This document shows, piece after piece, positions 1,548 to 61,904 of a stretch of 64,000 nucleotides of DNA. The first letter of the stretch is position 1. The number at the start of each line of letters is the position of its first letter. Source of the stretch: Dudresnaya verticillata (Eukaryota); assembly GCA_977862235.1 (NCBI GenBank), contig OZ374560.1:1-64000 (forward strand), in the 5' to 3' direction. A program made the position numbers and the translations under genes. A model generated the notes under the pieces. The model ran no database searches. It had not been told where the DNA came from and worked only from the letters and a program-made list of their open reading frames with translations.

Positions 1548-1552
1548 TCTTT

Positions 1553-11948: not shown

Positions 11949-11959
11949 AAGGAGGGGGG
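11949..11959 (+). promoter_or_regulatory. E1 polypurine tract
   Basis: AAGGAGGGGGG two bases before the LTR start TGTGGTG. Confidence 0.85.
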
Positions 11960-11961
11960 TC

Positions 11962-12618
11962 TGTGGTGAAGTGAGATTCGGCATCCGAAACGGTGGAAAT
12001 GCATATAGTGTGGCCTGAACCGTTGTGGGATGTGTGCATGTGTAACCGTGTCGGATGTTGTGCGCATTGCTGTACGCTGGTACGCATTGCTGTACAGCAG
12101 TGAAGCGCACCAACCATACCGGAGTATTTGTAGTGTTTATTCTTTATTTTTAGTGAGTATCTGTACAGTATGTAGAGTAGTGCGCCAGCCAATGAGAATG
12201 CTGCGCATGTCCGTGTCGGAGATTGGGACCAGCAGGGCCGATTCCACCATGGGTCCAGACCACTAGGGTCTGGCCCCCACGGACCGGACCGCTCGGTGCC
12301 ACCCTGACTTGTATATCAGGGCGGCACCGCAGCGGCTCCTAAGGCAAACGGGTAAGCAACCTTAGCCCAATCCTTTACGGTTTTCCCCGCGCCGAGCCCG
12401 TTGCGGTCTACCACCACCACCGTTACAGAGTCCGTCCCGGCAGTTGTACCACCCCCTTGTCTGTTGCTTCCCAATATCCGTCTCGGTTAGCCGCTAGCTG
12501 TTCTCCCGTTACGGTGCGAACTGCTCTACCACCCCGTGGAGGTAGTGCTGCTCTCGTCCGTTAAGGAAAGTCAGGCCAGCTGTCCGTCTCGGAGTTCGTG
12601 GGTTTTCACTACACCACA
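11962..12618 (+). repeat. E1 3' LTR (657 bp)
   Basis: TGTGGTGAAGTGA...TCACTACACCACA inverted termini; follows the PPT; matches the 5' remnant. Confidence 0.92.
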
Positions 12619-31758: not shown

Positions 31759-31893
31759 CCAACCCGCCATTCCACCCCCCCGAGGGCACAGCGTGCTACC
31801 AAGCCCAGACAACCCACGGGCACCCACGACGCGCAGCTTCGGCTGGGGCGCGCCCAAACCGCCATCCAACTACAACAAACTGCCCCGCGAGGC

Positions 31894-32880
31894 GTGCCCT
31901 GGCTGTCAAGAAGCCAAGCCGCCTCGCCCGGCGTTCCAATATCCCACGTAGACCCGTTCGGATTGCTGGCTAGCTATGCCGCCCCGCCTGGCCTGCCGAT
32001 GAAGTTCGCCGCCCCGACTTGCCACCCAAAAGTATCAAACATCATAGACGGGTCTGTGAAGGCGCCCTCGGTGCCAGTCTGGACCGAGGAGCAGCGCCGC
32101 ACCGTGCTTGCCTTATTGAGTGCAGCTGGAGTCGCTACTAGCGGTTTGAGTGGTTCGCCCACTGAGTGGGTGAACCAGTCTCTGGCGGCTGCGTCGCGTT
32201 CCCAAAGTGCGTCGGTGCCGGTGCCGATGGTTGGCGTAGGTTCTGCGTCGAAAGACGGTGCCGACGGAAAGTCGTCATCGCCTAAGGCGACTGGTTCAGC
32301 GTCCAAAGACGTAATTGATACTGTACCACCAGCGGCGAGCGAGGCAGATGTCGCTACAACGTCTCCGACGGTTGAAGAGGGCCCAGTGGCTCCTGCGTTG
32401 ATGACGGATATAGATCCAATGACGCCAAAGGCGGGTGAGGGGTCTACGTCGGTTCAGACGGTTGCGACAGTTGCGCCGAAGGCGGTATGTTCTGCGGCGC
32501 CGAAGACGAGCGATGAGTTGAACTCTACGCCAAAGGCGGTTGCGGTTGCTTCGCCGTCTAAGGGGACAGTCCCTGCAACTACGCCGAAGGCGGATGTTAT
32601 CGGGGCAGCGCCGGAGGCGAATGGACCACTTGGTTCTGCGCCGTCGGCGGTTGGGAAGGCCAAAGAGGCTTCGCCGCCTAAGGCGGGTGGCGAGTCGAAC
32701 CCTTCGCCAGGGGCGCATATTACTCCTTCAGCTGTGGCGGTGGCGGTGCCTTTGCGGTCCGTCCCTGTTGCCGCTGTGGGTGTGCCGTCAGTGACGGAAG
32801 ACGACCTCTATGAAGAGGCGTTGAGGGAGTCCGCCGATGGCGATGGTGCGGCGGACTCGGCCAAACCGTCTGCTACGTGA
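31894..32880 (+). CDS. E2 antisense accessory ORF, C-terminal part (Ala/Pro/Ser-rich)
   Basis: 328 open codons antisense to pol; shares the W....S.GV....VDPF motif with the E3 antisense ORF. Confidence 0.55.
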   Translation: MPWLSRSQAASPGVPISHVDPFGLLASYAAPPGLPMKFAAPTCHPKVSNIIDGSVKAPSVPVWTEEQRRTVLALLSAAGVATSGLSGSPTEWVNQSLAAASRSQSASVPVPMVGVGSASKDGADGKSSSPKATGSASKDVIDTVPPAASEADVATTSPTVEEGPVAPALMTDIDPMTPKAGEGSTSVQTVATVAPKAVCSAAPKTSDELNSTPKAVAVASPSKGTVPATTPKADVIGAAPEANGPLGSAPSAVGKAKEASPPKAGGESNPSPGAHITPSAVAVAVPLRSVPVAAVGVPSVTEDDLYEEALRESADGDGAADSAKPSAT

Positions 32881-34229
32881 CATAGTTAGCGTCGTTTAGG
32901 GCGGAAGGCCTTCGCGGGGGTGCGTATCGTGTACCTTGTCGGCTCCTTTGCGGAGTCGGGGCAAGGCGTCGTACGTCGTTGACGAATGTGTTAAATGTTC
33001 TGCGGCGTTTAGCCGCCGTGGCTTGTAGCTTGGGCGCGGGGCTTCCCCGTTGCTTAGCCCGAATGAATTGTATCGTTGGTAACGTAGTTTGGTTTCGTCT
33101 CGCTGCGACCGTCGTGTTGCAGCCGTCACGTCTTAGTGTTTTGCCACCGCGTTTCTTGTCTTCGTCGTGACGACGTTAGCATATTAATCGTCGAGAGACG
33201 TTACTTGGGCGTTGTACCTCCCTTCTTGTTCGCACATTAGCGTTGTGTAGCGCCCGGAGCGTATAGGGGTTTAGCGACGTTGTCGGTGCCGAGCCTCTTG
33301 GTTATCTCGCTTAGCGAAGCGTTTCTTTGCGTTGCATTTCATCCTGCCACGCCCGACGTAGTCGTCTTAGGGGACTCGCTCAGCGCGTTGTTGGGCCATT
33401 TGCAACGCCTGGGGCGTATTCTCTTCTCGTTTGGTGCGCTGTAGCTTAGTTGTGCGCATCGTCGTTGACGGAGGTCGGCGTGTGGTAGGTGAGGTCAGAG
33501 CCTTGTTCCTCGTCTCCGACGTTCGCCTTCGAGGGTGGGGAATGGTCGCCGCGCGACTGTGGCGGGCATTCCCAGCGGCGGAGCCGTTGCGCGATTTGGT
33601 TAGCGATTCGGTTGTGCGTCGTGCACGGAACCGTGATAAACGCGTCCTCGACGACTCAATCCCCCCCTTTGTCGGCGGGTTCGGCGGCGTGGTGCGTGTG
33701 TTCGTGCCCGGCCGAGCCGTTCGCTGGCTGGGGAAGTGAAGGCTGCAGCGACTTGGCCGTGGTGCGCAAGCGTGCGGCAACGTCGGGGACGGTCTTTGCG
33801 CGTTACGAAGTGCGTCTCTGCATGGCGACGTGCGCGCCGGTAGCACCAGTGCTGCCACTTGGCATACCTTGTGTGGCGTAATGGTTGATTGTCGGGTAGT
33901 GCGCCTCCCCTTTGTTTGTGCATTAAATTTTCCAGCTCGCGTCTGCGTCTGCAATGGGATTGGTGAGGCGCGTACCTCGGTGAGTGATCGGGAGCCACTG
34001 TCAGCCACCCGCGCATCCGGGGCGTTGTATGAGGGCCTTGTGGTGTGGTTGTCTTCGACGCCAGAATTGCATCCGGCTCCGTCTGTGACGTGTGTGCTTG
34101 ATTGTCGCCGCGGCGGGTGTGTCCGCGTCCACGTACGTGAGAGGGGGATTCCACGCCGTTGGCGACATCCGCCCGCGCAGTCTCTGAACGTCATTGTATT
34201 CGCTACTAGCGTTGTTTTCCCGATTAGGG

Positions 34230-37200
34230 TTATCCGCGCTGGGCGTCCTCAATATTTGGAGGCAGGCGCGTGTGCTTCCGACGGTGGTACCGCACGGCGT
34301 GTGATCGCGGCAAACTGGACACGGGCTCCCAGGTGTTCGCTGAAGCGGGGTATCCAAACCACTTGACGCGGTAGAGGATCTCACCGTCATCCGCGTAGGC
34401 GTGCGACTCGATGCGTTCGATAACGTATTCTTTCCCGCTCACAGCGTTCGGCTTGGACCGGTGTCCTTCCAGCGCCTTTGGCGGTTCGTCTCGTTGCGTT
34501 ATGGGCGTCTGTTCCGGTTCGGCGAAGCGTACTCGACGAGTTGATCGCCGAAGGCGTTGGCCTTGGGCCTCGGACGCTCGATCAGCGGTCAGTGGGTTGT
34601 TGCGTCTTGAGACGACTTCATCGCTTGCAGCGCTTTGCTTCGTACTTGCACGGTTAACGTCTTCGTTATCGGACGCGCTTTCAGCGGATTCATTGTTCTC
34701 ATTCGGCGGTGCCGTAGCGACGTGTTCCAAACGGGTGCGAACCCCTGGGGTATTGTCGTCGTTGGAGACGGATTGCGAAGCGCGGTCGTCGGGATCGGCA
34801 GCGAAGGGCGAAAGCTCTGCCAACCCACGACTGTGTGACGCTGTGGTCGTACGCTCTTGCGGATCTCTCGCAGTATTCGAAGTCTCCGCGTCCCCCTCCG
34901 GGTCCGCTGGTGGCGTGCTTGGGGTAGTCGTCCCTTCGTCTTGTGACGTGGGGGCGACTGCGTCCTGCTCCTCAGGTGGACCTGGTGGTACGACGATTGG
35001 AGGAGCCGCCTGGCCCGGTGGGGTCGGCGCCCAGACCACGCGGTCTCGGGACAAACGTTCCCGCTCATCACGTCCCTTGTCGACGGTTTCTCCCTTCGTC
35101 TGTAGACGCGAAAGGGCATCTGCCTGAGTATTCGGGTACCCCTTTTTGTACTTCACGACAAAGTCGAACTCGGAAAGGCGAAGGCGCCACCGCATTAACC
35201 GTCCAGAGGGGTCGCTGATTTCCATCAGCCACCTCAATGACGAATGGTCCGTATGGACTGTGAACGACTCCATCTGGAGGTAAGGTCGCAGCGTCATGAC
35301 GGACCATACTACTGCGAGGCACTCCTTTTCGGAGACCGAGTAGTTACGCTCTGGAGCGGTGAGTGAGCGGGACCAGAAGCCGAGTGGCTTACGTTCCCCG
35401 TCCGGCTGCATTTGAAAGAGAGCGCAGCCAACCTGATACTCGCTTGCGTCACAGTCGACGGAGTAGGGGAGATCCTGTTGTGGTAGCGCCAGTATAGGCG
35501 GATGAGTCACGGCCTCGACGAGCGTATTGAACGCTTTGGCTTGTGTCTCATCAAACGGTGGTAACCGGAAGTCCTGTTCCTTCCTCAGCAACTTGTCGAG
35601 GGGGGCAGCGACATGCGCGTATCGCGAGACGAACCGTCGGTAGACGTTACAAAGACCTAGGAAACTCCGTAGCTCCTTCTGATCCCGTGGATGCTTGGCT
35701 TCGCGTAGCGCGGCAGTGACAGTTCGGTCGACTTCTAACCGTCCTGGACGTATGACGTGTCCTAAGTAGTTGACGGTCGGGGTGAAGAAGTCACACTTGG
35801 TCAACTTCAGAGTCACCCCGGCGCGGTGCAATGTGGAAAGGATCTCGTCAACATGACGGAGGTGACTGTCGATGTCGCTGGAGAAGATTATTACGTCATC
35901 GAGGTAGACGAGGCACGAACGCCACTTGTAACCAGCGAGCAGTATGTCCAACGTTCGTTTAAACGTAGCGGGTGCGTTCGTGAGACCGAATGGCATACGC
36001 TTATAGCGGAACAGTCCAGCGTGGCACGTGAACGCAGTCTTATCGCGGTCTCGCGGATTGATCGGCACTTACCAGTACCCACTGTTACATTCTAGGGTGG
36101 TGAAGACGTTTGCTTCCCCTAGACTGTCGATGCATTCGTCGATACGCGGCAGCGGGTACGTGTCCCGTATGGTTACTGCGTTTAAACGACGGTAGTCCAC
36201 GCAAAAGCGGAGGGTCCCGTCCTTCTTGGGGGCGAAGACCACTGGTGACGCCCACGGCGATTGTGCGGGTTCGATAACCCCTTGACGCAGCATGCGGTCC
36301 ACTTCCGCTTGAGCGAGTTGCCTTTGCTTCGGCCCCGCTCGATAGGGCGGGGACGATATCGGCCTAGAGCCGGGAAGCAAGTCGATGTAGTGCTCTGTGG
36401 TTGAGATTTCTCCCAACGAACCGTCCCACATAGACGAATACTTGCGCAAAATCTCCTTAAGCCGGCCTTGATGCTCGGCGGGGAGATGGCTCAGGTCCAA
36501 ATCGTCTACCGACGGAGGTTTGGCAGTGGTTGCCTCGATAGACTTCGTGAAAGTATCCGGCTGTGCCGTACTGTTATCGTTCGTTTGAAAACGGAAATCT
36601 TGGTTTGCCTTCTACTCCTCGGCCTGTTCCTCTGTGAGGCCCAAAACATCGGCAAGACTTACGTGACTGGGGAACACTGCTGTCGGATGTGGTAACGCCG
36701 TCGCGGCGACTTGGCCTTTGGCCAGCGCCTGCGGGCGGGGAGAGAAGTTGGCAACCAGAATGCGAAACGCTTTTAGCGACTCCACTTGAGCAATCCCGTT
36801 CGTAACGGCCAACCCTTGTTTGTCGTACAGCGTTCCGAACGGTTGAATTGTGATGATACCGGCGCGCTCGGTGGTCACCAATACCCATTGCTGCGCCTTA
36901 GGCGGGATGATCGCGCGCTCGGCGACTCGGATCTTGGGCGACGTCCTCCCTTCGGCCTTGCCGTATTCCTGTTCCGTTGGTAACGGAGGATACGACGGGG
37001 GTCGGCGCAGCGGGCGGCGCGTTATAGGGACACGAGTCCCGTCATCCAATTCAACCTCGCGACTTCGCGGATATATTGCTTCGAAGAACCGGTCGCAAAA
37101 GTCGCAGCCGAGTATCACCGGCGCAGCGAGTCGTTCGCAAACGATCAGTTCCAACTTGACGACTCTCCGTCCTAGACGAACGATCAAGTCGATGGTGCCT

Positions 37201-37421
37201 CTTGTCTGGATCGCCTTATTGTTGGCTTCGGCTATGACGGGGAGGCTCTTTGTCACGATGCGCGATCGCGCTTCCAGCGGAATGTCGTCAATGCGAATGA
37301 AATTCGGACCAGCCCCCGTGTCGAGGACAGTGAGTTTACGTGCCAAGGTACTAACGGTTGCGCCCAAATCGGCGTACACCTTATAATTCCTCTTGGCCAT
37401 CACGAACAACTGCCCTTGCAC
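34230..37421 (-). pseudogene. pol: E2 pol: PR, RT, RNase H, chromodomain; in-frame stops at 36612 and 36069; no integrase
   Basis: LDTGA, YLDD, DASEY/EKECLAV, ADALSRL joined directly to ...RLSRDRV, then EYVIERI...YRVKWFGY...TWEP. Confidence 0.9.
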
Positions 37422-37590
37422 CCGGGGGGGCTGGTACCTTCGCCATGGGCGTTTTAATGACGTCTGTGACGACTCTATCCGCCCGTTGGCGTCATCTGAA
37501 ACTAACTTCGGGCCCCCCTCCGTGTCAGCACCCGAGGCCTAGGCCTTTCTTCGCGGTGCGACACCCCAGTGTCAGGAGTTGGTGCCCGAG

Positions 37591-40155
37591 TTAGTTTTTG
37601 GCCTGCGGCGGTGGTTGTGGCGCTTCATAGCGATTGACCATCGTCGGATGACGTTCTGCCGCGTGCGGCATGGGTCCGCCTCGTGGCGATTGTGGTCGTG
37701 CAGCACGGCGAGCGGCATCGCGGGTCGCGCGTTCCTTGCAACGTACATACGCATCAGCGGGGACACCAGCCTTCTCGGATTCGGTTAGTCCTTCATAGTT
37801 GGTAATAACCTTCATGAAGTCGCTCATGCGAAGGAAGCAGTCCGGCGTGATGTGTCCGCGGGCGTAGCATTGGTGGCATACCAGTTGCCGACGCGCGTCT
37901 TGACGGGGCGGGCCTCTGTCCTGCCACCCGGGCCTTGCTCGGTGGACGTGAGGGGCATACTCGGAATAGGGGACGCGTGGCGCTGGTATGACCGAGCGCC
38001 CAAAGGCGAGAACAGGGTCCATATCCCTTTCGTCCTCGTCATCGACGTAGCTGTCCGTCGGTAGAGCCGAGGTTGGCACCGACGCTTGCTCGTCTGCCAA
38101 GTACAAATCGCCTTCGGCGTGTGTTTCCATGTCACCGACAGGTCGACTAATGTCTCGGAACTCGACGGAGGACTCCGCTATCATAGCGCGCGCTCCAGGC
38201 TTGGCGCCTCTCGTCTGTGGACGCAGTACCCCTCGGGCATCGCCGATGGCGGATCGCGGTGTGCGTACGGCTTGAGCCGGTGTCAGTAGGTCACGTCGCG
38301 CTGACGCGGAACCGGCTCTGCCGTGTCGTGCGCGGTTGGCATCCCCTTCGTCCTGTTCGAAGTGGACCAGCCGCTCAAATGACAACTCCGCCCTTGGCGT
38401 TTCTTCTCGGAAGCGAGCGACCAGAGACCTGATCGACGGGTCTAACCCGTCGATGTACAGCGTCATCTTTTCCCAATCGGGATATACGTTACCGCAACGA
38501 ATACACGCACCGGCTAGCCGCATCCCATAGGTCGTCTCGTCTTCGCCTTGCTTTTGGGCAGTCGACCGTAGGGCGAGGACAGCGTCCCTGATCGCCGCTG
38601 GCGTAGCATACGTACGGAGGAGGTACTGTACCGCCTCCGGATACGAAGACACCCCGCCGCGATGGCGAGAAGACGTCGACTTGACGGAGCGGAATTGCGT
38701 GGCTGCCGTACATCGCAAGAAGTACGGCAGCGCGACGAACGCTTGGGCTTCGCTCATCTCCAGCGTATCGGCTTCATCCGCGTAACGCGTCAGGAACTCG
38801 AGGACCATGACGGGGTCGCTGCCGTTGAAGGCGGCGTCCTTCATGGTCAGCTCCAGTCGCTTAATGTGGTCCTTGACCTTGCCCGTATCGCGCCCTGAGC
38901 GTTTTTGTCCTACGTCTTTGAGACGGTAAGTCCGGTACGATAATAGCTGATCGAAAAGGGGGTTGGAGGGGCGTAGCTCCTTCAACCCCTTGAACCGCTT
39001 TCCGCGAGGTCTTGCCGCACTGCCGAGAGTTGGGAAGTCGTCGTCTTCAGACGAAGAGTCCGATGACTCTCCGTCACTTGACGAGTACGAAGACGATGAG
39101 GATGGGTCCCCTCGTCGATGACGATTCTTCTTCCGTCTCTGACGTAGCTTCCGACGGCGTTTCTTCCGGTCCTTACGTCTTTGACGATCTTCGCCTGAGC
39201 TCTCGTCACCTGACGGCGGACCATTGCGCCACTTGGCGGTTTCGAGACGCTCTAAGCGAGTCGCAAGTCGCTGAAAGCGTTCGCGTGAGCTAAGCTCAGA
39301 ATGCGAATGAACCGTTACTGCCGGCGGTGGCTGGGTACCCTCGCCTTGGGCGTTTTGGTTCGTCAATAGACGGTCGAGGTCGGATCGAAGTCCTTGTAGG
39401 GCGCCGTTCCGATCTTCTTCCAGCGTCTGTAGACGACTCGCGATTCCTCCGACACTGTCGTCCAGCAACCCGGCGAATCGAGCGAGCATCGCATCGTCCT
39501 CTAAGACGCACACCTCTCGGATCCGTTCGCGTGGTATCGTTAAGTTACTCACGCGGACGGCCGAGGGTGACGCCGTTGGCGGTTGGCTTTCGCGGTTGGA
39601 CCGGTCGGGCGTCCCTTGCGCCCTTTGACTTGGCGAATTCGGCTTAGCCGGTGAACAACCGGCACTGCCGTGGGGAGTGGGGCAACATGCCCCGTGTGTC
39701 AATGGTTCGTCCCCGACGTTGCGCTCCGCGGCGCGCCCCTGTTCGTCGTTGACGTGGATGGTTAGTTGATCCGGAAGTTCCGGTTGTCCCTCGACGATGT
39801 CGGCTTGTGTTCCGTCTACGACGTCCTGTTGCTCGGCTTGTACTGTATCAGCCGAGTCAACATAGGAGCGGTAGGTGCGGAGGGCCGATCCCTCGGGGAC
39901 GGAGGTGCGGACAACGACGGGGTTGTGGCGCGTCGGCGGGGGAGGTAACTCTCCTCCGTTGAGCGACGCGTGGGAGCCTGCGTGGCCGTGGCCCGGGGGT
40001 AGCGTCGGGAACGCCGACGCGATCTCGGGGCTCACGAGGCGCCCAGACCTCGTTGTCATCCGCTGTAGCGACCGTTCAGACACGGGTACACTCCCAGGCG
40101 TCGAAGACGGTCTTCTTGAACTTGGGCCTCGCGACGGCGGCGGTCGTGAGGCCAT
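37591..40155 (-). CDS. gag: E2 gag (854 aa, open)
   Basis: FNGSDPVMVLEF...LLRTYAT...YIDGL core and a CHQCYARGHITPDC CCHC knuckle; homologous to the E1 gag. Confidence 0.88.
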   Translation of the reverse strand: MASRPPPSRGPSSRRPSSTPGSVPVSERSLQRMTTRSGRLVSPEIASAFPTLPPGHGHAGSHASLNGGELPPPPTRHNPVVVRTSVPEGSALRTYRSYVDSADTVQAEQQDVVDGTQADIVEGQPELPDQLTIHVNDEQGRAAERNVGDEPLTHGACCPTPHGSAGCSPAKPNSPSQRAQGTPDRSNRESQPPTASPSAVRVSNLTIPRERIREVCVLEDDAMLARFAGLLDDSVGGIASRLQTLEEDRNGALQGLRSDLDRLLTNQNAQGEGTQPPPAVTVHSHSELSSRERFQRLATRLERLETAKWRNGPPSGDESSGEDRQRRKDRKKRRRKLRQRRKKNRHRRGDPSSSSSYSSSDGESSDSSSEDDDFPTLGSAARPRGKRFKGLKELRPSNPLFDQLLSYRTYRLKDVGQKRSGRDTGKVKDHIKRLELTMKDAAFNGSDPVMVLEFLTRYADEADTLEMSEAQAFVALPYFLRCTAATQFRSVKSTSSRHRGGVSSYPEAVQYLLRTYATPAAIRDAVLALRSTAQKQGEDETTYGMRLAGACIRCGNVYPDWEKMTLYIDGLDPSIRSLVARFREETPRAELSFERLVHFEQDEGDANRARHGRAGSASARRDLLTPAQAVRTPRSAIGDARGVLRPQTRGAKPGARAMIAESSVEFRDISRPVGDMETHAEGDLYLADEQASVPTSALPTDSYVDDEDERDMDPVLAFGRSVIPAPRVPYSEYAPHVHRARPGWQDRGPPRQDARRQLVCHQCYARGHITPDCFLRMSDFMKVITNYEGLTESEKAGVPADAYVRCKERATRDAARRAARPQSPRGGPMPHAAERHPTMVNRYEAPQPPPQAKN

Positions 40156-40260
40156 GATACAATCGTAGAGTTGCTTGAACGTCGTGGACGATTAGCGACA
40201 AACGTCAGAGACGGGGAGTCGGACGTCGCGCGACGGAGAAACTCGTTGAAACGTAGCACA

Positions 40261-40279
40261 ATTCTAGGTCGGGAGACCA
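40261..40279 (-). promoter_or_regulatory. E2 primer-binding site (same tRNA as E1, probably Tyr)
   Basis: TGGTCTCCCGACCTAGAAT on the minus strand, 2 nt after the LTR. Confidence 0.8.
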
Positions 40280-40281
40280 GA

Positions 40282-41130
40282 TGTGGTGCAAACGTCTGTC
40301 GACGATGGACCGCCGAGCAGTTCGGGGCTCGGTGGGTAGCTGCGCCCTTGGCGAGAGGTGGTCCCGCCGTGGGCGACTTGGTGGTAGAGCAAAGGAACAC
40401 GCCTTGGGCGGACTGTAGACGCCGAGGCGGAAGGTGTGAAGGAAGGAAAAAGGGAACAGAAAAGGGAAGCACGTCAAGGACGGGTAGAGACGTGGAAGCA
40501 CGGGAGGTAGACGCTTAGCCGTAGGCAGCGGTAGGGTACGCGCGTGCGGAACGGGGAAGTCTGGACCAAGGCCGGCTTGTCCAGGGTTTACTCAGCATCG
40601 CAGACGGATTACCTAATATACAGTACTACGTGAGCGACGGCGGTAGGCGCGGTGAGCGGGAACTCAGGACGCGTGTCACGTCGTCGAGCGTCTGACACGT
40701 CGTCGTCGCCATGCAGCCGCGCGCGCGAGAGCTCAGGAGTAGCTTACAGGCGCATGCGTGTAGCGTTGCGGGCGATCCGGATTCGGATCCAGATCCCGGC
40801 CAGCATTGCTGGCGCGCGGCCATTACAGGCGCGCTCCTTACATCGCTGTGGATCCGGATGCCGGATCCCGGAGTCCCATCCGGATCCGATCCGGATCCGG
40901 GCCAAGCTTACAGGCGGGCGCCCTGCGCCCGGCCGATCGGGATCGTGCATCCGGATCTGGCCGTACAGTGGGCGCGTGCGCCGCGCCGCGCGGGGTAACG
41001 GCGGCCGTATGCCCGTGGGCCAATCGTCGATGACGTGTTCGCGCGCCAACGGCGGTGGACGTTCCGTCGGTGGACGTTGGCATATAATACGCTCAGAGCG
41101 AAAAAGGGGCAGCCCTCCCCTTGCACCACA
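40282..41130 (-). repeat. E2 5' LTR (849 bp)
   Basis: Perfect TGTGGTGCAA...TTGCACCACA termini; GGATCC-rich U3; homologous to the solo LTR at 47682-50251. Confidence 0.9.
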
Positions 41131-47177: not shown

Positions 47178-48251
47178 TTAAATGCGCACGCCACGATGGC
47201 AAACGTATGACAATACGCATACTCTGCGCGCGCCACGATGGAATTCGCATTACAGCACGCACGCGATACGAAATCGCTGACACCCCGGATGAATTCAGAG
47301 CTGACTTGTTGATCACGCGCGCTACGAATTACAGTGCACAGCCGATACGAAATCGCTGACATGTTCGTGATCTTCCCATTGTTTCCCACGCGTGACGGCA
47401 CCGAGGCCCACGACGCGAGTGCACCTCCGTATGCATCGCTGGCGAACTTCGTAACCGCCACCATACGTGAGACCCCCGTTCCTTGGCACCGAGGCCGTTA
47501 CGAATCATTCGAGTACGAACCGTCTCCGGCGTTGACGTGTATTCATGCTCATGTATTATTACTTAGCCAGTCGTCTGGCACAACCTCCGAGGGTTTCCGG
47601 CAAGCGACTAGCGCCCGGACCTCGGAGTCTTCGGTAAACGCCTGTTTTTTCGAGTTGGGTGTCTTCCTCTTCGTGCCTGCGTGTGGTGCAAGGGGGGGTG
47701 AGCCCCTTTTTCGCTGAAAGCGAAGCAACAAATACGTCGACCGACGGAGAAACCGCTACCGGCGCTCAACACCGCCGTTGGCGCACGAACACGTCATCGA
47801 CGGCTCACTGGGGTGCGCGCGCACGTTGCGCGCCGCGCGCCATGCGGGCACTGTACGGTGATGGGCCGATATGGCGCCCCGGGGCACTGTAACACGGATC
47901 TAGATGGGATCCGGATCGGGTATCCAGATTGGCTATCTGGATCGTCTGCGCTGTAAGGTACGCGCCTGTAAGGCTGCGAGTGTTCGCATTGCTGGCCCGG
48001 ATCCGGATGGGGATCGGGATCAGAAAAGTATCGGATTAGATCAAGGGCGCACGCTCTACAGTACACGCGCGCGCACAGCTGTAAGGCGCACGCGTCCACG
48101 TGTGTGTAAGCGCCCACGCAGGGGGTTGCGCGGCAACCTGTCAGGCGCGCGGCTGCATACGATGGGTGATCTGTCAGACGCGCCTCGGGACGACACGTGT
48201 CCCGAGTTCCCGCGCTACGCACACGCACCGCCGCCGCCGCACCGCCGTGCT

Positions 48252-49916
48252 AAAAGCAATAAAGAGGTAATAAATAAAACATTGTCTATGTCTATTCCCG
48301 CAACCTGAAACGATGATTATTTTACGTGCGGACGGTGCGCGGGCCACCTCTAGATAAGCTAGAGTGCCCTGTCGGTGCACAAAGTTGACAACTAAACAAC
48401 AATTATGCAAAAAGAAGAATGCAGACGGCTAGACGCACCGGCGGGAATCGAACTGATGGCACAGCTTGGGCGGGGGAAGACACCCCAACTCCCCCCGCGC
48501 CTTCGACCCCTCCGCCCGAAAGAAATTCATATATATACGCGCAATTCTATATGATACAAGCTGTTTGCAATCACATTCTGGCGCGAAAAGCGGAACACTG
48601 CAACCGGCAGCTAGCCTTAAAGGGAGCGAGGACCCTCCTTGGACACTGTACCCCACCCTCACCCCACCACATCAGTTCAAAATGCCTCGCGGCCGCCTTC
48701 TCTCTGCCGAAGAGAAGGGGCAGATAACTGCCTACTCCAAGTCGCTGTTAAGCGTCCGAAAAATCGCACAACTCATCAGACGCTCTCCCGGGGCCGTCCA
48801 GAACTTTCTTAAGCACCCTAAAGTGGTGAACGGATTCAAATCGGCCGGAAATGCCCGGAAACTCAAGCTGCGTCAGACCCGCCTTCTACTCCGCGAAGCC
48901 GCAAAAGGAGAAATGTCGTATAGGGAACTACAAGTATCCCTCGAACTCCCCGTTGGAGTCCGGCGCGTGCAACAGCTCTTAAAGGCCACCCCTCATCTCA
49001 AGTACAAGAAGATGCTGAAGCGCCCGCAAATGCTTAAACGTCACAAAGATGCTCGCTTGAACTGGGCAAAGAAGATGCTGGAGAATGGACCGGAGTTCTG
49101 GCGCAGCGTGGTATTCTCCGACGAAAAGAAGTTTAAGTTGAACGGTCCTGACGGTAATGCCTCATACTAGCACGATCTACGAAAGGAAGAAAAGGTCTTT
49201 TCAACAAGGCATTCGGGTGGTGGTTCTTTGATGCTGTGGGGGGCCATTTCGTGCAGTGGGGTTTCGATGCCTGTGTCCATTGAAGGTACTCTTGACTCCT
49301 CACAGTACTACCAGATACTAGAGGAGGAGTTATTGTCCTTTGCGAGCAAGAAGATTGGGTCGGAATGGGTTTTCCAACAAGATAATGCGTCTTGTCATCG
49401 GTCCAACTATACCAAGATGTGGTTCTATAGTAAGGATGTCGACGTTCTAGAGTGGCCGGCAAAGTCCCCGGACCTGAAAGTCATCGAGAATGCCTGGGGG
49501 TTGATGGCGAGCCGTGTTTATGAGTGTGGTAAGCAGTTTGAACTGTTGAGGACTTGACTGAAAACGTTTTAGATGTTTGGGACGGCTTGTCCTTAGACTA
49601 TCTTCAAACTCTTTACGACTCGATCCCTCGTCGCCTTGTAGAGGTCGTCGAGCGAAAGAGTAATGCCACCAAGTACTAAGAAGCCCAAAATAAAATTTTC
49701 TTTGTTGTGTATCATATAGAATTGCGTGTATTTATTCTATTTTCGGTAATGTTTTATTTTTTACCTCTTTACTGCCTGCCGCGTTTTAATATCTGATTAC
49801 AGATTTGGATTCTCCTGCCAATAATGTATTTGGACGAGCTCTGTCTCGTTCCAAAGCAAAGGGCAACCCCCTTTCTGTAAAGTCTCTGGGGTGTTTTATG
49901 CGATTTTCGCACACTG
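48252..49916 (+). mobile_element. Tc1/Tc3-like DNA transposon, outer left end deleted
   Basis: Right end ...CACACTG|TA. Inverted sub-repeats 48256-48283/49748-49775 and ~48533-48559/49705-49731. Confidence 0.85.
48682..49679 (+). pseudogene. Tc3-like DD34E transposase (TAG at 49168, frameshift ~49545)
   Basis: MPRGRLLS HTH start, FSDEKKF, FQQDNA-x34-E (WPAKSPDLKVIE). Confidence 0.9.
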
Positions 49917-50596
49917 TACTTAGGTAAGCCGTCCCAGACGTAGCAGTAAACGCCCGGGCAAGCCGGCCTTGGTCCAGACGTCCCCGTTCCGCACGCGCGT
50001 ACCCTCCATTACCGCTGCCTACGGCCTAAGCGTCTACCTCCCTTGCTTCCACGATCAACCATCGTCGTTGACGTGTTTTCTTTTTTCTCTTTTGTCCTTC
50101 CTTTCCGCCTCGGGTGATTACAGTCCGCCCAAGGCATGTCAACCGCTCTACCATAAGCTGCCCTAGGCGAGGCTACTCACCGCCACGGGCGTCGCTACCC
50201 ACCGAGCCCCGAACTGCTCGGCGGTGTTCCATCAAGGACGTTTGCACCACACTGCGGATACGGTCGAGCCTCGCCTTCGATGGCCCCACGAACCCGGAGT
50301 CTTCCCCGGTGGGCGATCGCTCGAGTTCTACCTTCCGCACACGAATACGTTGACACCGTGGTCCTTCGTGTTGGTCGCTCCGCTCTACCACGCTATCACC
50401 CCTTTTCCTTTCTCCGTTAGGCTATGAGGCCACACTTTAGGCTCCGAGGCCATTCCTTACAGTGCGAGACTTCCCCGCGTCACCGTAGTCTTCGTTATAC
50501 CACAAAGGAAAACACTATCACACGGATTAATTTGAACACGGCGGTAGCCTGATAGTGCTGGGCAACCGAGGCCAAGGACCACGGTGTCAACTTGTT

Positions 50597-51433
50597 TGTG
50601 GCATAGCTGTAAGACCAGCTGTGCCACGCACGCGCAGCTGTAAGACCAGCTGCGCCACGTGTGCACCGCTGTGCGCACGCTTTCAGCCGGTGGCGCCGAA
50701 GCCCCGCTGAACTGTAAGAAAGTGCGCAGTGGCGCCCGCGCGTGCACGTGTACGCGTGTGACACTGAAACTCCCATGTAATTTCTACGTTTATTGTTGTG
50801 TAGTGTACAGCACCGTCTAGTGTAAGCGGCGGTCGAACGCCCTGCCGTCCTGCGCGCCGTGCGCACGCACTCCGGCGCAGAGCCGTTGTGTGCGTGACAC
50901 GCGCGCGCGCACTCCGGCGTCGAGCTGTTGAGTACGTGTGGACCGTTTCGCCCACGCGCGCCCCCGGGTTACCGTTACCCGCACGCGTCGACGCTTGTTG
51001 GGGCGCGCCGGCGCACCTCCCGGGTTGGTGCCGCCACAGGCCCTGTAGTATATTTAGTAGTCGCCCCTCTGGGCTTGAGTAAACCAGGCAAGCCAGCCTA
51101 CGCCAGGCTTGCTCTTTTCTGCTTTGGGTTTCTTTCCCAGTCCTTCGCCCTACCGCTTCCCTCTTTCCCTAGCCTTCTAGGCTTTCCTTTTCCTTTCCCT
51201 ACCGTCGGCTTCGTGCCGCCCCACGACGGGGACGCAGGGATCCGGCCGCTGCCGCCCGCGTACGGTACGCCCCGTGCGCGCTCAGGCTTCGACGCCGTTG
51301 ATCCACGACCGTCGACGGCACGCGTGGCCGACACCACCGCTCTACCACCACCGCTACCACCCTTCGACGGGTCTGGGTGCGACTACGAGACCAGCCGCGC
51401 TAGACGTGAGTTCGACCTGACGTCTATGCCACA
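50597..51433 (+). repeat. LTR (837 bp) of another family (E4), no matching TSD
   Basis: Perfect TGTGGCATAG...CTATGCCACA termini; TATA-like and pyrimidine-rich layout like the E2 LTR; GCTGTAAGACCAGCTG duplicated. Confidence 0.7.
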
Positions 51434-51750
51434 GTAATACACATAATCGAGTTCACGCAGAGTTCGACAATCTCCGTGCTGGCAAGGTCCGCAGGATCGA
51501 AGACCCACTCAAAAGCCTCCGGGATCTCGTCTCGGGAGTCAGCAAGCATTTCCTCGTGCTCGACCGCAGCGCAACCGCCCCCGTGGGCAAGGCGACTCAC
51601 TCGCTTCCCGTTCGCAGCTCGCACGCGTTTTCGGAGTACCAGTTAAACGCTATTCGTGACATCGTGTCCGCCGCGTTACGAAAAGACTAGAAGTCGCAAA
51701 GATCGTCCCGATGTCCGTCCTGACCCCGCAATTCGCCGCAAGTTCAACCC

Positions 51751-53541
51751 ATGCAGGGCCTGGGTACCCAATCTAGGTTACCGAAAAATACGTACCGGAA
51801 TCCGTTTCCTCGTCCTACAATTTCGCATCCGGCAACCGATGCCTTCGGCAACCCCCGTATCAACCCCGCAGTCTTTCCAGATTCGTTTCAACTACCGATG
51901 TCCCCGGGAGGACCCGTAACCGAAAGTCCGTTATCGCTCGCGGGACCCGTGTCATCCTTCTGGCACTGGGGACCGCTTGAGCCGGGCGTCGAGCCGATTC
52001 CGACGCTCATTCCCGAATTCGGGCGGGCCGTGAGTTATCGATGGTATCGACTTATGAATTCGTCACCTCGAGATAACCAACACGAAGTATTCCGGGGTAA
52101 CCCATCGAAGGCCGGTTCACTTATGCGTTCGATGATGCCAAGACTGGAGAAATTCAGGGGACGCGATCCGATTAAGGTTCTCGCATTTCTTCGTGATACC
52201 CGTCAAGCGCTGAACGGATTCGGTCTCATCGAAGGAGCAGCAGTGCGTACGATTTCGTGGTTCCTCGATGAGACCGCACTAAAGATGTATCTACACTATG
52301 CCTTCGGAGGTGTTCGTACTGGCAACCTGGTCTGCTGGTCCGCGATCGTGAACGTATTGCTGCAACGATTTCTCACAGAAGATTTAATCTCTGACACACA
52401 CGACCGCGTAATAACCGTGAAGCAGAAACCCGATGAAACCGAGATGGAATTCGCGACTCGTTTACAAGGCTACGCAGATGTCTGCTCTGGTGTCTACGAT
52501 GACTCCTCGTTAACGCAGCAGTTTATTCGTGGGTTGGTACCAACTACGTATTCCGTAGTTGCCGACCAGGTACGCCGATTACCGCTGTCCGAGCAGAAGA
52601 ACTTTATGAGCTTGCAACGAATCACGCAAGCCGAAGGCACGACATTCTGAGCTCGTGAGCAACGTGACGCCGCGGCCCAACAATCGGGTGATTCGAAGAA
52701 CCGAGTATCTGCTACGTACCCGAAGAGTCTCCAAGCGTCCGGACGTACTATGCTCATCGAAGCTTACGATACTCCCGGGAGTTAATTCGAGTTCTCGATG
52801 AACGAAGACCCGCAAATTGCCGTGATGATGATTCGTTCAGGACCCGGTTCCACGTCCGCTACATCGACTACTTCGACAACGGTATCCGTAGACGATACGT
52901 TGGATCTCACGAGTCGCATCGAGCGCTTCATATCCGCGCGTGTCTCACCGATGACCACGTAGCAAATCGAGATGGCGCGTTCGATGATCCCGAAGAATCA
53001 GGATGCGTGGCCGTGTTGGTTCTGCCGCAAAATCTGTCATCTGATTTATTCGTGTCTGTATCTCACGAAGGAGCAACAACCCTACTGCGCGTACCAGAAA
53101 TATCTCTATCAACTCGAGACGAGACCGTATAGGCAGAATGACTTCGTGAATCGCGGTGTCGCAAGAGGGAATTCATCCTCGTCCATTGACAATCGAGATC
53201 ACCGTGGACAGGACTTCCGTGGATCGCGTGAAAATGGCCTAACGCGAGATCTTCTTCAAGGCGACACGCGCTACCCGAAGGACTTAGCCCTGCGTCAAGT
53301 CAGCTTCGCTCGTCGAGGACCGCGGACCATCCTCCGCAACTCGAGACACGCGCAGGCCCCGGGCCGCCACCAGGTTCTCATAGTCCGTGAAAACGTTAAC
53401 GAGATTGAGCTGAGTCACCCAAATCTTCTCTCAGAGGCCTACGAAGAATCTGTGAATAACGGAAGAGGTGGCGGATCGACCACACCCTTGGACGCGGATC
53501 CCCGTACCATGGATTCTGGCTCGAGTTCGGAAAACGAGTAA
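51751..53541 (+). pseudogene. gag: E3 gag (multiple stops)
   Basis: FRGRDPIKVLAF...FIRGL core and CWFCRKICHLIYSC knuckle. Confidence 0.8.
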
Positions 53542-53759
53542 AGACGAAGACGCCCGTTGTGTCCCATACTTAGTGTAATTCCGTTCCCCGAGACACTCCG
53601 CGTATTCCGATTCCGAAAGCCGCTGCGATGCGAAGGAAGCGCGCTACGCGAAGAGGAGACCGAAAGGGACGTCCAGTCCTCGCGAAAGCCTCTTCGTCCG
53701 AAAACAGTTCGAAGAAGAGACCGATTCCGAATATCGAACCCGCAGTTACCACCGAGGGA

Positions 53760-56700
53760 TACGTTTTTTTGATGACATCAGAGATCTTCCTTGTGACTGG
53801 ATCTGTAGGCCTAGATGCTTCCGTAATGACGCCGAATACGATGGCAGTCGATACGTGTTCCGGTTACATCGCATAGCCCGGGCTGTGTTACCCATCGGCT
53901 GAGAATCGAACGCGTCCACGAGGGAATCAGCTCCGAGGCTCGCATCCGCTGATCGCACCTGGATTAGACTCTATGGTATCGTTTAACTGACAGTCGGCCT
54001 CGGAAGCTTTCGTTATCGCGTACCAGTCGTGGTTGCGGAAAAACGCTTAGTCGATGTTCTCCTTGGAACTTCTTGGATGGATGCGCATTTACGAAGCATC
54101 AAGTTCAGTCCACGGAGGCTCGTCATGAATCGTGGAAGCACGATTCCGATTATTAATCGCATTTCTGGATCGGTTCCGCCCGCTATGAATTCGAAAAATC
54201 CGAAACCGAAATTCGGGAAAACGCTATCGAAGCGAGACCAACGCGAGCTGCACGATTGGGACCGAGACACTCGCACCATTCTTTTGATCCGCCGAGCACT
54301 ATCCCGAGTTATTCGCAGAATCTAGTCACCGTGATCTCGGAAGTACTCGGGCTAATACACTTCGAAATTGAACCTTCGTTACAACTTCAACACGTAGTAC
54401 GGTGAACGAACGGGATACACGAGGTCAGCTCGAATCGCGAGTTTTTTACGGCAAACTTCACGGATAAGCTTCGAGCGCTACCGATTGGAACCGTCATCGG
54501 ATACGCAGCTCGAAACCTGCTCGCGATTTTGATGCCCGATCGCGAAGTCGCGGATTCGTCTGCCAAGGTGCTCAACATCTCCACGCTACGCGAACAGGAC
54601 GACTCGAGGTCACCAGAAGAATCCATATCCAAGAAGGAAAAACGGCTCAAGAAAGGCGCCGCGACTGCGGCTGCCGAAGCCAATTCGAGTTCCCGCGATT
54701 GGGAAGAACGCGTAGACCGTTCAAATACACCCGACGAAACTACGCGAAACGAGGTCCTCGAGATGTTCCGAAAGCGCGAATCTATGTGGAACAGAGACCT
54801 CGGAACAATCGCAGCCACGGAGCATCGTATCGATCTGAAACCCGGAACTCGACCTATTCGTTCGATTCCCTACCGTCAAGGGCCCGCAATACGATAAATC
54901 GCCCGTAACGAAATCGACAGTATGCTCAAAGCCGGATTAATCGAACCAGCCACCTCGAAGTGGGCGTCTCCCGTATTACTCGCTCCGAAGAAAGACGGAA
55001 CACTTCGTTTTTGCGTGGATTGCCGAAGACTCAATACGAAGACACCATTGGAGGCGTACACGTTTCCCCGGATGGAAGATTGTATCGATTCCCTCGGAGA
55101 CGCTTCGATTTTCTCGACACTCGATTGCAACAGCGGGTATTGGCAGATTCCGGTCGCCACGAAGACCACGATAAGACTGCGTTTACTTCGTTTCTCGGAA
55201 TTTATCGTTATCTACGTATGTCCTTCGGTTTGAAAAACGGGCCCGCTAGGTTTCAACGCGCACTCGATATCATTTTATCCGGAGTGCGTTGGCAATGTTG
55301 CCTCGTCTACCTCGATGGCTTAATATTTTCTCCACAACTATTCGTGAACACATCGCGCATCTCGATCAAATCCTCACGCTGCTTCGTAACTACGGGGTTT
55401 TGCTCAAGGTGAAGAAGTGCTTCCTCTTCAAGAAACGAGTCGATTATTTCGGACACGTAGTTTCCCCCGGGAAGCTGCGTATGGCCGAGAAGAGCTCCGA
55501 AGCATTCCGATACGCGAAGTTCCCGAAGATACTCCACCACGTCTGCTCATTCCTAGGTTCGTGTAACTTATATCGACGATTCGTGAGAGACTTCGCGATA
55601 ATCGTGGGACCTTTGACGAACATGAGACGAAGGGACGCGGATCCTGATTAAGAGAATCCCACGGAGGAACACGTTACCGCATTCGAAACGCCCAAACGGA
55701 AGCTCGTGTCGCCGCCAATTCTCCGGCTACCAAAACTCGGGAAACTTTACATCATCGATACCGACGCATATTCGTATCAACCCGGATGCGCGTTGCTATA
55801 GGAGCAAGAGAACGAAGGATTCCAACCTGTGGGATACTGGTCTTATTCGTTAAACGATGCCGAAAAGAACTACTCCGCAACCCAGCGCGGATGCTACGCA
55901 GTAGTATGGGCGGTTACTTAGTTCCGTCCGTATATCGAAGGGCCCCAGTTCACCGTACGTATGGACCAAGATGCGTTCCGATGGCTTCTTTCTCCTGCCG
56001 ATTCGTCCGGGCGACTCAAGCGATGGAGGGGGCGATTACCCGAATTCGACTTCGAAATCGGATATCGCCCCGGACGCATACATCAGATACCCGATGCCCT
56101 CTCGATGTTGCTGCTACCGCATCGAGAATCACCCGACATCGACGACGAAGTTCCTACGTTTGACTCCGATCAAATCGCAGCATAGAAAGAAGAACGCTTC
56201 GGAAACGACATCACGAAGACAGTCGAAAACGAAATAGACCCGGTTCCAATTACTAAGAGATCTCGCAAGCGTCAATCGAAGGTCACCGCGATTCGCCACG
56301 ACTCCACGCGGACGACTACGCCCGCAAGACGGGCAATTCGAGCAGGCACTACGCAAAGACCCACGGAGTTCCCGAAAGGTTACGAAGCTGGCAATCATAA
56401 GTACCACGAAGGCTGCGCACACGCACACGACGAAACATTACACGATACGTGATAAATACGAAGGCCAAACCGATGTCTACAATGATGGCGATTTATGGGG
56501 CGATATCGATGACGATGACCCGTTTGACCTTTATCGAATCGATCCCAACGACAAACCGAGTGACCTAACCGACTTCAAACCTGTAGACGTACCCGCACAG
56601 ATTACCGTACCCAAAATCCTCGAAGACAACTTATTGATTCGTTCTGCCAAACGGCGCAAACACAACAATCGAAAACGAAGGATAATCTCTTTGACGAAGA

Positions 56701-58050
56701 TGGAGAAGGTCTCCTGCGACGAAAGCATCCGACAATTCCGAAGTTAGCGCAAAACGTATTGCCCGAAACGCTCCGACCCCGGTTACTTCCACTGGCGCAT
56801 CATTCGTTACTCGCGGGACACCCGGGGCAGAATCAAATGTTCTACTCACTTCGTGTACCGTATTACTGGCCTTACCTGGCTTCCGATATTGCACCCACGG
56901 CTAGAAATTGTAAGCACTGCGCAATAAATTGAATTCGTTTACGAAGGAACCTTCGTCGATTGAAGCTCCTCCCCGCTACCCATCCCCTCTAATCCGTCGC
57001 GATTGACACCTTAGGCCCGTTTCCACCAACAAAATCCGGATGCAAATTCTTACTCGTGATTATGGATCGATTTACGAAGTTGACTCAGGCGGCCACACTA
57101 CGAGCCATAACCGCGTATCACGTCGCAATCACGTTTTGCGAGTTTTGGATCCTCACGTACAGACCGTCAGACTCGGTGCTCTCGGCTAACGGAAAACAGA
57201 CTACTTCAAAATTCTTTTAGGGCATCTGCAGACTACTCGGGTTATCGAACGTGTTCACTTCCGCGTATCATCCGCAAACGAATGGACAAACCGAACGATA
57301 TAACCGGACTATCTTCGCGATGCTTCGTAACTACGTGAACGAACATAAAAACAATTGGTACAGACCGATATGGCTTCGCGTTAACGTACTCGCACAATTG
57401 CCACTTTCATTAGTCTACGAAGATAACTCCGTTCAATCTCATTTTATCGCGACCACCACCCGAATTCACCGTCAAGCATCGCTCCCGTAAGCACCGACCG
57501 AAACCCACAGAGGACATTCGTGACGAGTTCATTAAGCGACTCGATGTCGCGATCGACTCCGCATGCACTTCGTTACAACGCGTTCAAAATTGTTACAAAA
57601 CAGGACTTCGATGAGCGCATCCGCCGCACAAAGAGCCGCATGAAACCCGGAGATTACGTGTTCCTCGATATCCACGATGGGAAAATGAAACTTTCGAAGT
57701 TTAAATCCCGCGGAGAAGCCGTAAATAGTGCTCTTCAACAATACGCGCAATCGCGTGATCGATCGCGAGGGTGTCGTCGAACGCGGTTCCGCGGACCGCT
57801 GCATATACGCACCACCGCCTACGAATTTACGATCGTCGATTACGAGACTCGAAGACATTGCGGAAAAGGTCACCGAAGGCCCGAGTACGTTTTCGACCGC
57901 ATTATTGCTCACTCGGCCGCCGAAGACGGGAAATTCGTATTCGTATCAAGTGGGACGGCTACGCGATGCCTTCGTGGGAGCGTCGCACGCACGTGCCCGA
58001 ATAATGCGTTTACGGATACTTTCAAAAGCTCTGACGCAAAGCGGACCCGC
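53760..58050 (+). pseudogene. pol: E3 pol, heavily disrupted
   Basis: VDTCSG protease, LDCNSGYWQI / YLD RT, RNase H, AYHPQTNGQTER integrase, EYVFDRI...IKWDGY..SWE chromodomain. Confidence 0.85.
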
Positions 58051-59747
58051 GTGATCCCGTGCTACTCTCTGACGAACGGCTCTCCGATTGGGACCCCGAG
58101 TGGTTCCGTGGCCCCGACTTCGTCATCCGCAACCCGCAGTACGAATAGCCCCTACACCCACTCGAGTTGGGCGCCGCACCGTAGCTCAACACACGAAAGG
58201 TCCCGGCGCCCACTGCGTTCTCGCAGCACTTGCCCGCTGCTAAGGTGCTCATTACGATTGCCCCGGGGTATTCGGTCTCACAGTACCGCTACGAGCTCTT
58301 CGTGCACCCCTTCGTGGTAACCGTCACCGTATTTCGCAACGCGCCTTTTCATGTACGACAACTGCCCCGACGCACAGTTGTCTCGGATCAGAGACGGTCG
58401 TCACCGAGCTACCCCGCGTCTCACGCTGCGCAATTATAAACCGCGCAATTCCAGACCACAACGCGTCGTCATATCCACGCGACGCACGAAAAGGAAACCC
58501 TCGGAGGCAGCACAAAGCCCTCTAGGCATCACCGACTTCGCACGCGACGATGCCACCACGAAGTTGCACATCGCGACGTCGTGCGGCATCGACCACCACA
58601 CCGCAATCTTAGTCACATCCGCCGCTGGCTCATTCGCGCACACGGTTGCACCAAGTCAATCGCATTACAGGAGCTGACACCGAGGCTCCCGGACGGTGCA
58701 CACTACGTAACTTGTCATACCCGATTGACATCATTCTTCGAGGCCGATCCCACTCGCACAACGCAACTCGCACGCTCACCCCGCGCATCAAACCCTCATC
58801 GCTCGAACGATTGCCTCGGAGCAAAACAGGAGTCGAGTGATCCCCGCGCTTGAGCCACGGAGTGGACCCCTTTTTACGACGCACGACGCGCCTTCGAAAA
58901 GCCCACGTAGTTCTCGCTTGTTCGACGCGCGCAATCCCCTCGCATGGCCTCGGCGCCTCGGTACGCATACGTTCCGCACCAGCAGAAATTCGCCAACGCC
59001 AGCCTCGGAGCTCACGAGACTTGCTCGACGCAGTCCTCGAGACACCTATGCAGCTCTCCGAGTAGCTCTCCGGCACGTGTCACACCTCTTATAGTCTGCG
59101 CGGACGCCTTCGTCTTGAGGAGGGGGTATGTACGTAAAATCCCGAATTCTCGATGACGCAACCTTCGAAGATACTGCGCGTAATATTATTCATAAGTAGC
59201 GCCACACGAATCAGGAAAAACGAAGTCGTTCTAAAAACAAGTCTCAATTCGCACGCTTGAGCACGAAGCTCGTTTATGAGAAGCTACGATGCTAAAACTA
59301 CGATGCAAACAACTACCTGACTACTGCTAAGAGGCAAAAGGCAAAAGAAAAGTCGAGAAAGAGAAAACGTTTTACTCGAAACGATACCACGAGACCGAGA
59401 CCCCGCCACTATGAGCTCCAAGAACAAGAGCTCGATATCGAAAACGAGAAACTAAGCAGCTATGAAGCTAAAAAGAAGCCGGGTACTAAACTACGTAATA
59501 ATACCGGCGAGCATACGGATTTGTGGAGTCGTAAGTCAGGTTATCACCAGGATCGTTTCCGTTTTCGTTACGAGTCGCTCGACGAAAGTTCGGCGCATAC
59601 GGATCCGATCTCTGCGATTGTCCACGGTGACCATCGTATCCGTAGCCACCGCTGGGTCCGAATCCCGAAGGGCCCCGAGGCAGACCGGTAAGGCGAGGAA
59701 TCGTAACTCGGGTAACCATAATCTTCGCGCCGACGCTTACCGCCAAA

Positions 59748-61800: not shown

Positions 61801-61904
61801 GAGCGAACTATTCGAAGAAAGAAACGCGCGAACTGGTTCTTCCGTTCATTGATTTAGAAGCATTTGTGTCCCAGAAAACAGTTTCAGATAGCTCCGAAAT
61901 AGGT

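Follow-up and report, generated by a model that had tools for sequence, protein, structure and literature searches.

Symmetry over a full sequence is what is read in integron attC sites and in the promoters of the phage N4 virion RNA polymerase, in both cases on extruded or single-stranded DNA. Here we describe a dispersed set of symmetric sites in E2, a Gypsy retrotransposon on a 64,000-nt stretch of Dudresnaya verticillata DNA (contig OZ374560.1 of assembly GCA_977862235.1, positions 1 to 64,000), which we call the window and to which all positions refer; family specificity was judged inside the window and on fetched relatives. Among the closest described systems, the VANC motifs of Arabidopsis VANDAL elements are, in the part of the report available, fixed, non-palindromic 8-9-mers that are mostly non-coding, tandem-amplified and carried by a DNA transposon (PMC5735166). 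Retand (Tat) Gypsy elements, which the accessible sections of their report place outside the chromoviruses, in flowering plants, and describe as carrying tandem arrays, have a conserved antisense TRP28 open reading frame (ORF) between pol and the 3′ end, for which DNA binding has been proposed (PMC11963269). The sites in E2 are mirror sites with variable letters and are likely a self-recognition tag, read by a protein that the element encodes.

For E2 the original prediction had been a palindromic code, CGTC-N3-GACG, with an N4 form. Its 22 listed N3 coordinates are all correct and one extra site lies at 37168, so that 31890-41130 holds 23 N3 and 18 N4 sites; the positions named for the motif in an E2-type solo long terminal repeat (LTR; 47792, 49930, 50063) and in an E2-like fragment (63432) are also correct, and the motif is absent from a second Gypsy element, E1 (0 N3, 0 N4 sites), as had been stated. 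The accompanying chance figure of well under 1 holds at low orders only (0.24 at order 0), the expectation being 1.6-2.3 at Markov orders 3-5. Across orders 0-5, with 150 simulations per order, expected counts were 0.2-2.3 and the simulation maxima 7 (N3) and 9 (N4) against the observed 23 and 18, while the half-site counts give an expected 1.5 CGTC-N3-GACG. Markov models of these orders fail to explain the motifs, and low-order composition, named in advance as what could undo the prediction, is ruled out as their cause.

An unbiased dyad scan of E2 recovers the CGTC motif and ranks CGCC-N3-GGCG above it, at the top (27 versus 1.1), with CGCT-N3-AGCG and CGGC-N3-GCCG emerging too. The predicted description was therefore too narrow, as CGCC-N3-GGCG outnumbers CGTC-N3-GACG and the two belong to one covarying class; the sites are real, but what they share is not a fixed palindrome but symmetry of the arms within a fixed outer CG. 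The wider rule is CG-XY-N3/4-Y′X′-CG, where XY is free and the arms are exact complements. It gives 128 sites versus 16.3 expected under an order-4 model:

32133..41100, strand not applicable: dispersed CG-XY-N3/4-Y′X′-CG sites, 128 in total, 90 with a 3-nt and 38 with a 4-nt spacer

Of the 204 occurrences of CG-N7-CG, 90 have inner pairs that match by exact complementarity, whereas 20,000 permutations gave a mean of 19 and no more than 37; where the arms are pyrimidine/purine the figure is 65 out of 76 (permuted mean 23.6, maximum 39). Mixed arms are nearly absent, with CGCC facing GACG in no case and CGTC facing GGCG in one, and all 12 one-mismatch classes, including G-T, are near background (largest 16 versus 9.0). 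An independent reading of degenerate CGYC half-sites would make mixed sites common, so a plain homodimer on such half-sites fails as a model. At least seven arm types are enriched, all with the same geometry, and the commonest are CGTC (41), CGCC (32) and CGCT (13). Loops are variable, with 43 different 3-nt loops among the 90 N3 sites, and arm counts do not track folding energy (CGGG, 0 sites at -4.7 kcal; CGTT, 7 at -0.7).

The sites run through all of E2, whose gene order on the minus strand is 5′ LTR, primer-binding site (PBS), gag, protease, reverse transcriptase (RT), RNase H and chromodomain; with its TG...CA LTR, PBS, gag, protease-RT-RNase H order and C-terminal chromodomain it has the make-up of a chromodomain-bearing Ty3/Gypsy element, and the best named relatives of its RT-RNase H are in Agarophyton chilense and Chondrus crispus, which points to a red-algal host. 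Its parts are as follows:

41130-40282, minus strand: E2 5′ LTR with TG...CA ends; LTR and leader together hold 14 sites
40263..40279, minus strand: E2 PBS, common to E1 (E1 copy at 1553)
37591..40152, minus strand: E2 gag, an open frame with a CCHC knuckle in its translation and 42 sites within the frame
34230..37538, minus strand: E2 pol remnant (protease, RT, RNase H, chromodomain), broken by in-frame stops
31999..32880, plus strand: E2 antisense ORF, 293 amino acids, low complexity, 16 sites

The stops in pol, the lack of a detectable integrase domain in E2 and the lack of a second (3′) LTR, which was sought beyond the antisense ORF, mark E2 as a defective copy. An Rfam scan of 31000-42500 gave no matches. 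Site density is 9-18 per kb in all coding and non-coding parts. Under synonymous-codon shuffling of six E2 frames, sites stand far above the shuffle mean (gag, 28 versus 5.9, maximum 12 in 300), and the 3-nt form tops the maximum of 300 shuffles in five of the six frames and ties it in the short 5′ RT piece, which rules out codon or amino-acid bias as the cause. In the antisense ORF, 8 of the 16 sites encode S/T/A/P-P-K/E/G-A; the repeated S/T/A-P-K-A words there are translated CGCC-N3-GGCG, an imprint of DNA sites on protein. As a separate observation, a 350-bp sequence with CCCTCA-like repeats, present at 31409-31758 and again at 46833-47182 in inverted orientation (99% identical), occupies the place of E2's missing 3′ LTR.

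Stem length and spacing are also constrained in E2. By permutation, a fifth pair immediately flanking the arms would be complementary in 32 of the 128 sites, but it is so in 11; a fifth pair is thus avoided, and the stem stays at four. Measured between centres, sites lie 12-18 bp apart in 2 cases where the null gives 12.4, and 19-23 bp apart in 27 where it gives 8.8, with none of 5000 jitters as extreme in either case; long-range 10.5-bp phasing is weak (cos-power 2.2-2.4, lags 31-32 empty) and we make no claim for it. Close neighbours are no more alike than background (identity 0.29 versus 0.27), and tandem duplication is thereby rejected as their source. Flank enrichments mirror each other to position 3, most exactly at position 2, where A at -2 (1.62) answers T at +2 (1.58), T (1.67) answers A (1.62) and C (0.56) answers G (0.62). 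We infer a twofold-symmetric site of ~17 bp beneath a footprint of ~20 bp, and there is a good chance that a protein leaves it. E1's fixed motif has a longer exclusion, to ~27 bp (1 versus 9.9), with sites almost never less than 28 bp apart, and exclusion is significant in the relatives L001 and L002 taken together (10 versus 28.6). Relatives of group A avoid the fifth pair as E2 does (52 versus 78), whereas groups B and C favour stem extension; group labels were assigned after the arm profiles had been seen.

The window holds three Gypsy elements, E1, E2 and E3, and its other stretches allow family specificity to be judged at one place:

1282..12618, plus strand: E1, comparison Gypsy with fixed CCG-N3-CGG (74 sites) and a nested long interspersed nuclear element (LINE) at ~8300-10480
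51300..61900, plus strand: E3, comparison element, a decayed Gypsy with non-palindromic ACGAAG/CTTCGT on both strands
47682..50251, plus strand: E2-type solo LTR flanked by a 5-bp target duplication, interrupted by a Tc1-like insert
63383..64000, plus strand: E2-like RT fragment, 92% identity, 7 sites

E1 and E2 do share the PBS and a homologous gag (27% identity, E 1e-20), as the original prediction had it, and its claim of family-specific codes is borne out: the motifs of E1 (with no arm covariation), E2 and E3 differ inside one window, and the templates of relatives follow RT clades. The LINE nested in E1 contains no E1-type site and the Tc1-like insert one E2-type site, versus 9 in the 918 bp of the solo LTR; with both inserts practically free of the surrounding element's sites, host-wide or locus-wide mutation is rejected. 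Between E2 and the solo LTR (68-82% identical), several arms are unchanged while their spacers differ, and other arms are lost.

Two scans for relatives gave 159 loci, of which 8 shorter than 2 kb were skipped; none was found in the viral collection searched. An excess of short inverted repeats, defined as at least 1.5-fold for perfect 4-bp arms with 3-5 nt spacers, is found in 45 of the wider clade's 63 loci; none of the 22 loci in a basal sister group shows it, and among the 66 distant controls from other Gypsy elements one does. On a quick RT tree (104 rows, L012 dropped, 10 distant loci as outgroup), the arm profile follows the clades. Templates per locus include CTnn-N4 (L003, L006), CGnn-N6/N4 (L001) and nnCC-N4 (L097, L150), and longer ones nnCCGA-N-TCGGnn (L090) and nnGCC-W-GGCnn (L092), although nested elements in some loci (L104/L140, L097) blur the per-locus values. 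The predicted CpG-containing palindromes hold for E1 and E2, but CpG is not general across the clade, as CTnn-N4 and nnCC-N4 show. Where contigs belong to the same assemblies, the templates of their elements differ by lineage. The close relatives L001-L012 sit in contigs labelled as bacterial metagenome-assembled genomes, probably through host contamination of the assemblies, and their sequences suggest a red-algal origin. In the distant loci L073-L079, GAC-N11-GTC / CGAC-N2-GTCG recurs in a pattern that may be a tandem repeat.

The reading we favour, at a probability of roughly 0.45, is that selection maintains these DNA sites and that a lineage-specific protein reads them, recognizing the letters of the outer CG and flanks but the symmetry of the inner pairs, probably as a mini-hairpin. 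That the sites are maintained by selection is very probable. In three rich clades, stems diverge less than background between close copies (0.062/0.103, 0.087/0.139 and 0.148/0.203), with copy pairs that are not independent, so that no P value is attached, while loop divergence tracks the background.

Whether the sites act as RNA bears on an alternative in which they are dispersed packaging signals, stem-loops that the family's Gag would recognize, conferring cis-preference among many sibling families. The minimal spacer of 3, the peak at 3-4, the preferred C-G closing pair and the preferred linker length would all suit real hairpins, and viral packaging signals depend on spacing and motif alike, according to the available part of one report (PMC6281560). 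A 4-bp stem might reject G-U even as RNA; however, there is no clear excess of G-U over A-C on the sense strand in any group, even in stems of 5-6 bp. GNRA loops are about as frequent as their reverse complements, sense minus antisense folding energy is within ~0.15 kcal of zero, the flanks mirror each other, and the conserved letters stand in the stem rather than the loop. Codes with a fixed centre occur in both orientations (L090, ACT 5 and AGT 4; L092, CAG 4 and CTG 4). The absence of strand bias indicates that sites are read regardless of strand and points to duplex DNA or both single strands. Packaging is thus improbable, and the sites probably act as DNA.

The protein favoured here as reader is that of an antisense ORF which relatives carry downstream of pol, with a conserved core of ~310 amino acids present in 30 of 159 loci across clades; this identification is tentative. 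The family comprises 655 clusters at 50% identity, and 2 of the 10 clusters looked up are named, both as multi-copy hypothetical proteins of Pyropia vietnamensis. The core has a confidently scored predicted structure (pLDDT 85, pTM 0.86) and no Pfam, NCBIfam or PHROG family; at E 0.001 Pfam found no family in any of the 53 antisense-family proteins scanned. Against PDB sequences the best E was 0.003 for a single short stretch, Foldseek gave nothing at E<=0.001 in PDB (both models) or in viral structures (first model), VIA with the first model reached a best Z of 3.5 and none of at least 5, and the top Atlas matches were clusters without names at 0.90, with low recognition. Such blank family and fold searches do not prove the fold new. 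SIM-like motifs, seen in 6 of 266 antisense proteins, are not general and were dropped. E3 has one candidate member of its own:

59748..60740, minus strand: ORF antisense to E3 with a weak antisense-family match (six-frame scan E 0.12; phmmer E 0.007; 10 bits)

The evidence at the DNA level would fit any dimeric reader, and a different one may be at work: integrase or Gag on complementary DNA (cDNA), a host factor, or homodimeric paralogues that each bind one fixed palindrome. E1 and E2 are without a detectable antisense core and a few arms dominate, but at least seven arm types share one geometry and adjacent sites share the same arm at chance level (6 versus 5.0), and a host factor would not yield templates particular to each lineage. 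We consider that such a reader has a small chance of being the right one.

An element-encoded reader would be dispensable if hairpins on plus RNA and minus cDNA shielded the element from a host nuclease, deaminase or small-RNA pathway. Folding on two strands would explain stems that are Watson-Crick-only and strand-symmetric, and groups B and C do have sequence-free stems that tend to extend; in E2, however, a fifth pair is avoided, the outer CG is invariant, arm use is indifferent to stability and sites keep a 19-bp minimum distance, elements from the same assemblies differ by lineage, and the motifs of E1 and E3 are fixed, all of which makes shielding very unlikely. The sites might instead be a neutral mutational signature of the lineage's RT, with fold-back or template switching turning quasi-palindromes into perfect ones. 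Such a signature would differ between lineages, involve Watson-Crick pairs only and mark coding and non-coding DNA alike, but it is highly improbable, as loop inversions are near absent (0/632, 0/171, 1/202) and neither arm is preferred (3262/3259 changes in the 5′ and 3′ arms), which favours selection over template switching, double changes in the same arm occur no more often than they do in a flat clade (0.67 versus 0.70 as ratios), and neither fifth-pair avoidance nor the spacing is predicted.

Under the favoured reading by a lineage-specific protein, selection would keep the 128 twofold-symmetric sites in decayed E2 as a family tag. The putative reader would bind DNA in either orientation over ~20 bp. 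It would recognize the letters of the outer CG and of the A/T-rich flanks, and at the inner two pairs it would test for self-complementarity, for which the simplest means would be to stabilise a mini-hairpin or cruciform of 4 bp; if it is the clade's antisense-ORF protein, it would be provided in trans for the E2 copy. The likeliest purpose would be to tag copies that belong to the family, the role VANC has for VANDAL, opposing silencing or licensing expression. According to the accessible part of a review, red algae have DNA methylation, transposon small RNAs and repeats marked by H3K27me3, so that there is silencing to oppose (PMC8566409); an anti-silencing purpose is nevertheless doubtful. 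In its boldest form the reading becomes a code for self-recognition that is carried by the symmetry of the DNA and not by its letters. An antisense protein of undescribed fold would coat the DNA of its own family every ~21 bp, extruding 4-bp mini-hairpins and measuring them, and lineages would remain distinct by altering anchor bases, spacer and stem length; this form we regard as unlikely.

Several points, besides the non-independent copy pairs, weigh against this reading. Arms of 4 bp do not extrude unaided from duplex DNA, and we know of no protein that reads symmetry in such a manner. The conserved core is detectable neither in E2's own antisense ORF (31999-32880) nor in E1, and it is not basic overall (isoelectric point 5.4-9.5). 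The basal group carries the core (L081, L082, L087, L102, L107, L134, L143) yet shows a symmetric excess in 0 of 22 loci, with just weak fixed dyads in part of the group. Groups A and D show only slight stem conservation (0.280/0.297, 0.222/0.236), and of two flat clades one has equal stem and background divergence (0.113/0.113) and the other slightly lower stem divergence (0.107/0.123), the latter being the adverse one. The bases at the loop edges are imperfectly mirrored (first A 1.65, last T 0.95), and the spacing rule is not general, exclusion being not significant in L003 and L006 combined and absent in group B. The weak fixed dyads just mentioned (TCC-N4-GGW, CTC-N3-GAG; L082, L087, L106, L111, L118, L134, mostly basal) suggest letter-based codes like that of E1 where the symmetric excess is not seen.

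Other features of the window concern the neighbouring elements. A telomeric array of an 8-base unit (CCCCTAAA) opens the window at 1-1281, adjoins E1 and truncates its 5′ LTR to the final 266 bp, as if a chromosome end had healed inside E1, and the LINE-type RT insert in E1 pol (8300-10480) shares an open frame with it, a 1486-amino-acid ORF at 5883-10343. At 47200-50600 the nesting has three levels, with the Tc1-like transposon inside the E2-type solo LTR and this inside an outer repeat, which is related to a solo LTR at 61909-62626 (5-bp duplication TATTT). E3 is CpG-rich (observed/expected 1.5), and beyond a polypurine tract-like stretch at 59117 it has a long region with the weak antisense-family member and a coiled-coil-like repeat. 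Between the elements lie a host Ras-family GTPase ORF (25212-25982) and a tRNA-Pro gene (27346-27420).

A code of arm complementarity can run through coding DNA at low protein cost and mostly escapes fixed-motif finders, which may explain why no description of it was found. No prior description was found in the full-text literature searched, a coverage outside which most subscription papers fall, including the original red-algal genome papers and supplements that may bear on novelty. It touches on how a retrotransposon distinguishes its own copies among hundreds of sibling families and on the role of Gypsy antisense ORFs, as one clade offers candidates for both the cis code and its reader, in many natural versions; if the reader is confirmed, it would be a new kind of DNA recognition by a fold without a match.

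The integron attC and phage N4 systems are prokaryotic and have one or a few longer sites, whereas E2 has more than 100 sites of four pairs. Like MS2-type packaging signals, as described in the available part of their report, the E2 sites are many, short, sequence-variable stem-loops along a genome for which spacing matters; unlike them, with a motif in the loop or bulge on one RNA strand, E2 leaves the loop free and treats the strands alike, and no shared loop motif on a packaged strand was found (43 different loops among 90 sites, no strand bias) (PMC6281560). The clade resembles Retand, as far as the accessible text goes, in the conserved antisense ORF after pol in relatives (the E2 ORF there being without the core), and differs in that the red-algal clade has a chromodomain and its antisense core matches no Pfam family and no TRP28. 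With TnpA/Spm and transposase-based cognate activation it has in common the proposed element-encoded, sequence-specific activation of cognate copies, but those readers are, in the portion of the preprint available, transposase-derived and belong to DNA transposons, whereas the antisense core has no family or fold match (bioRxiv 10.64898/2026.08.24.746577). The likeness to VANC/VANDAL, judged on the available part of that report, lies in many copies of short family-specific motifs, an extra encoded protein, and motifs that differ between close families (PMC5735166). Unlike the mainly non-coding, tandem-built VANDAL motifs, the E2-type sites are symmetric, variable in their letters, spread through coding frames at 9-18 per kb, not duplicates of their neighbours, and carried by an LTR retrotransposon; the pattern is richer than first described and, on the favoured reading, would be a form of transposon self-recognition.

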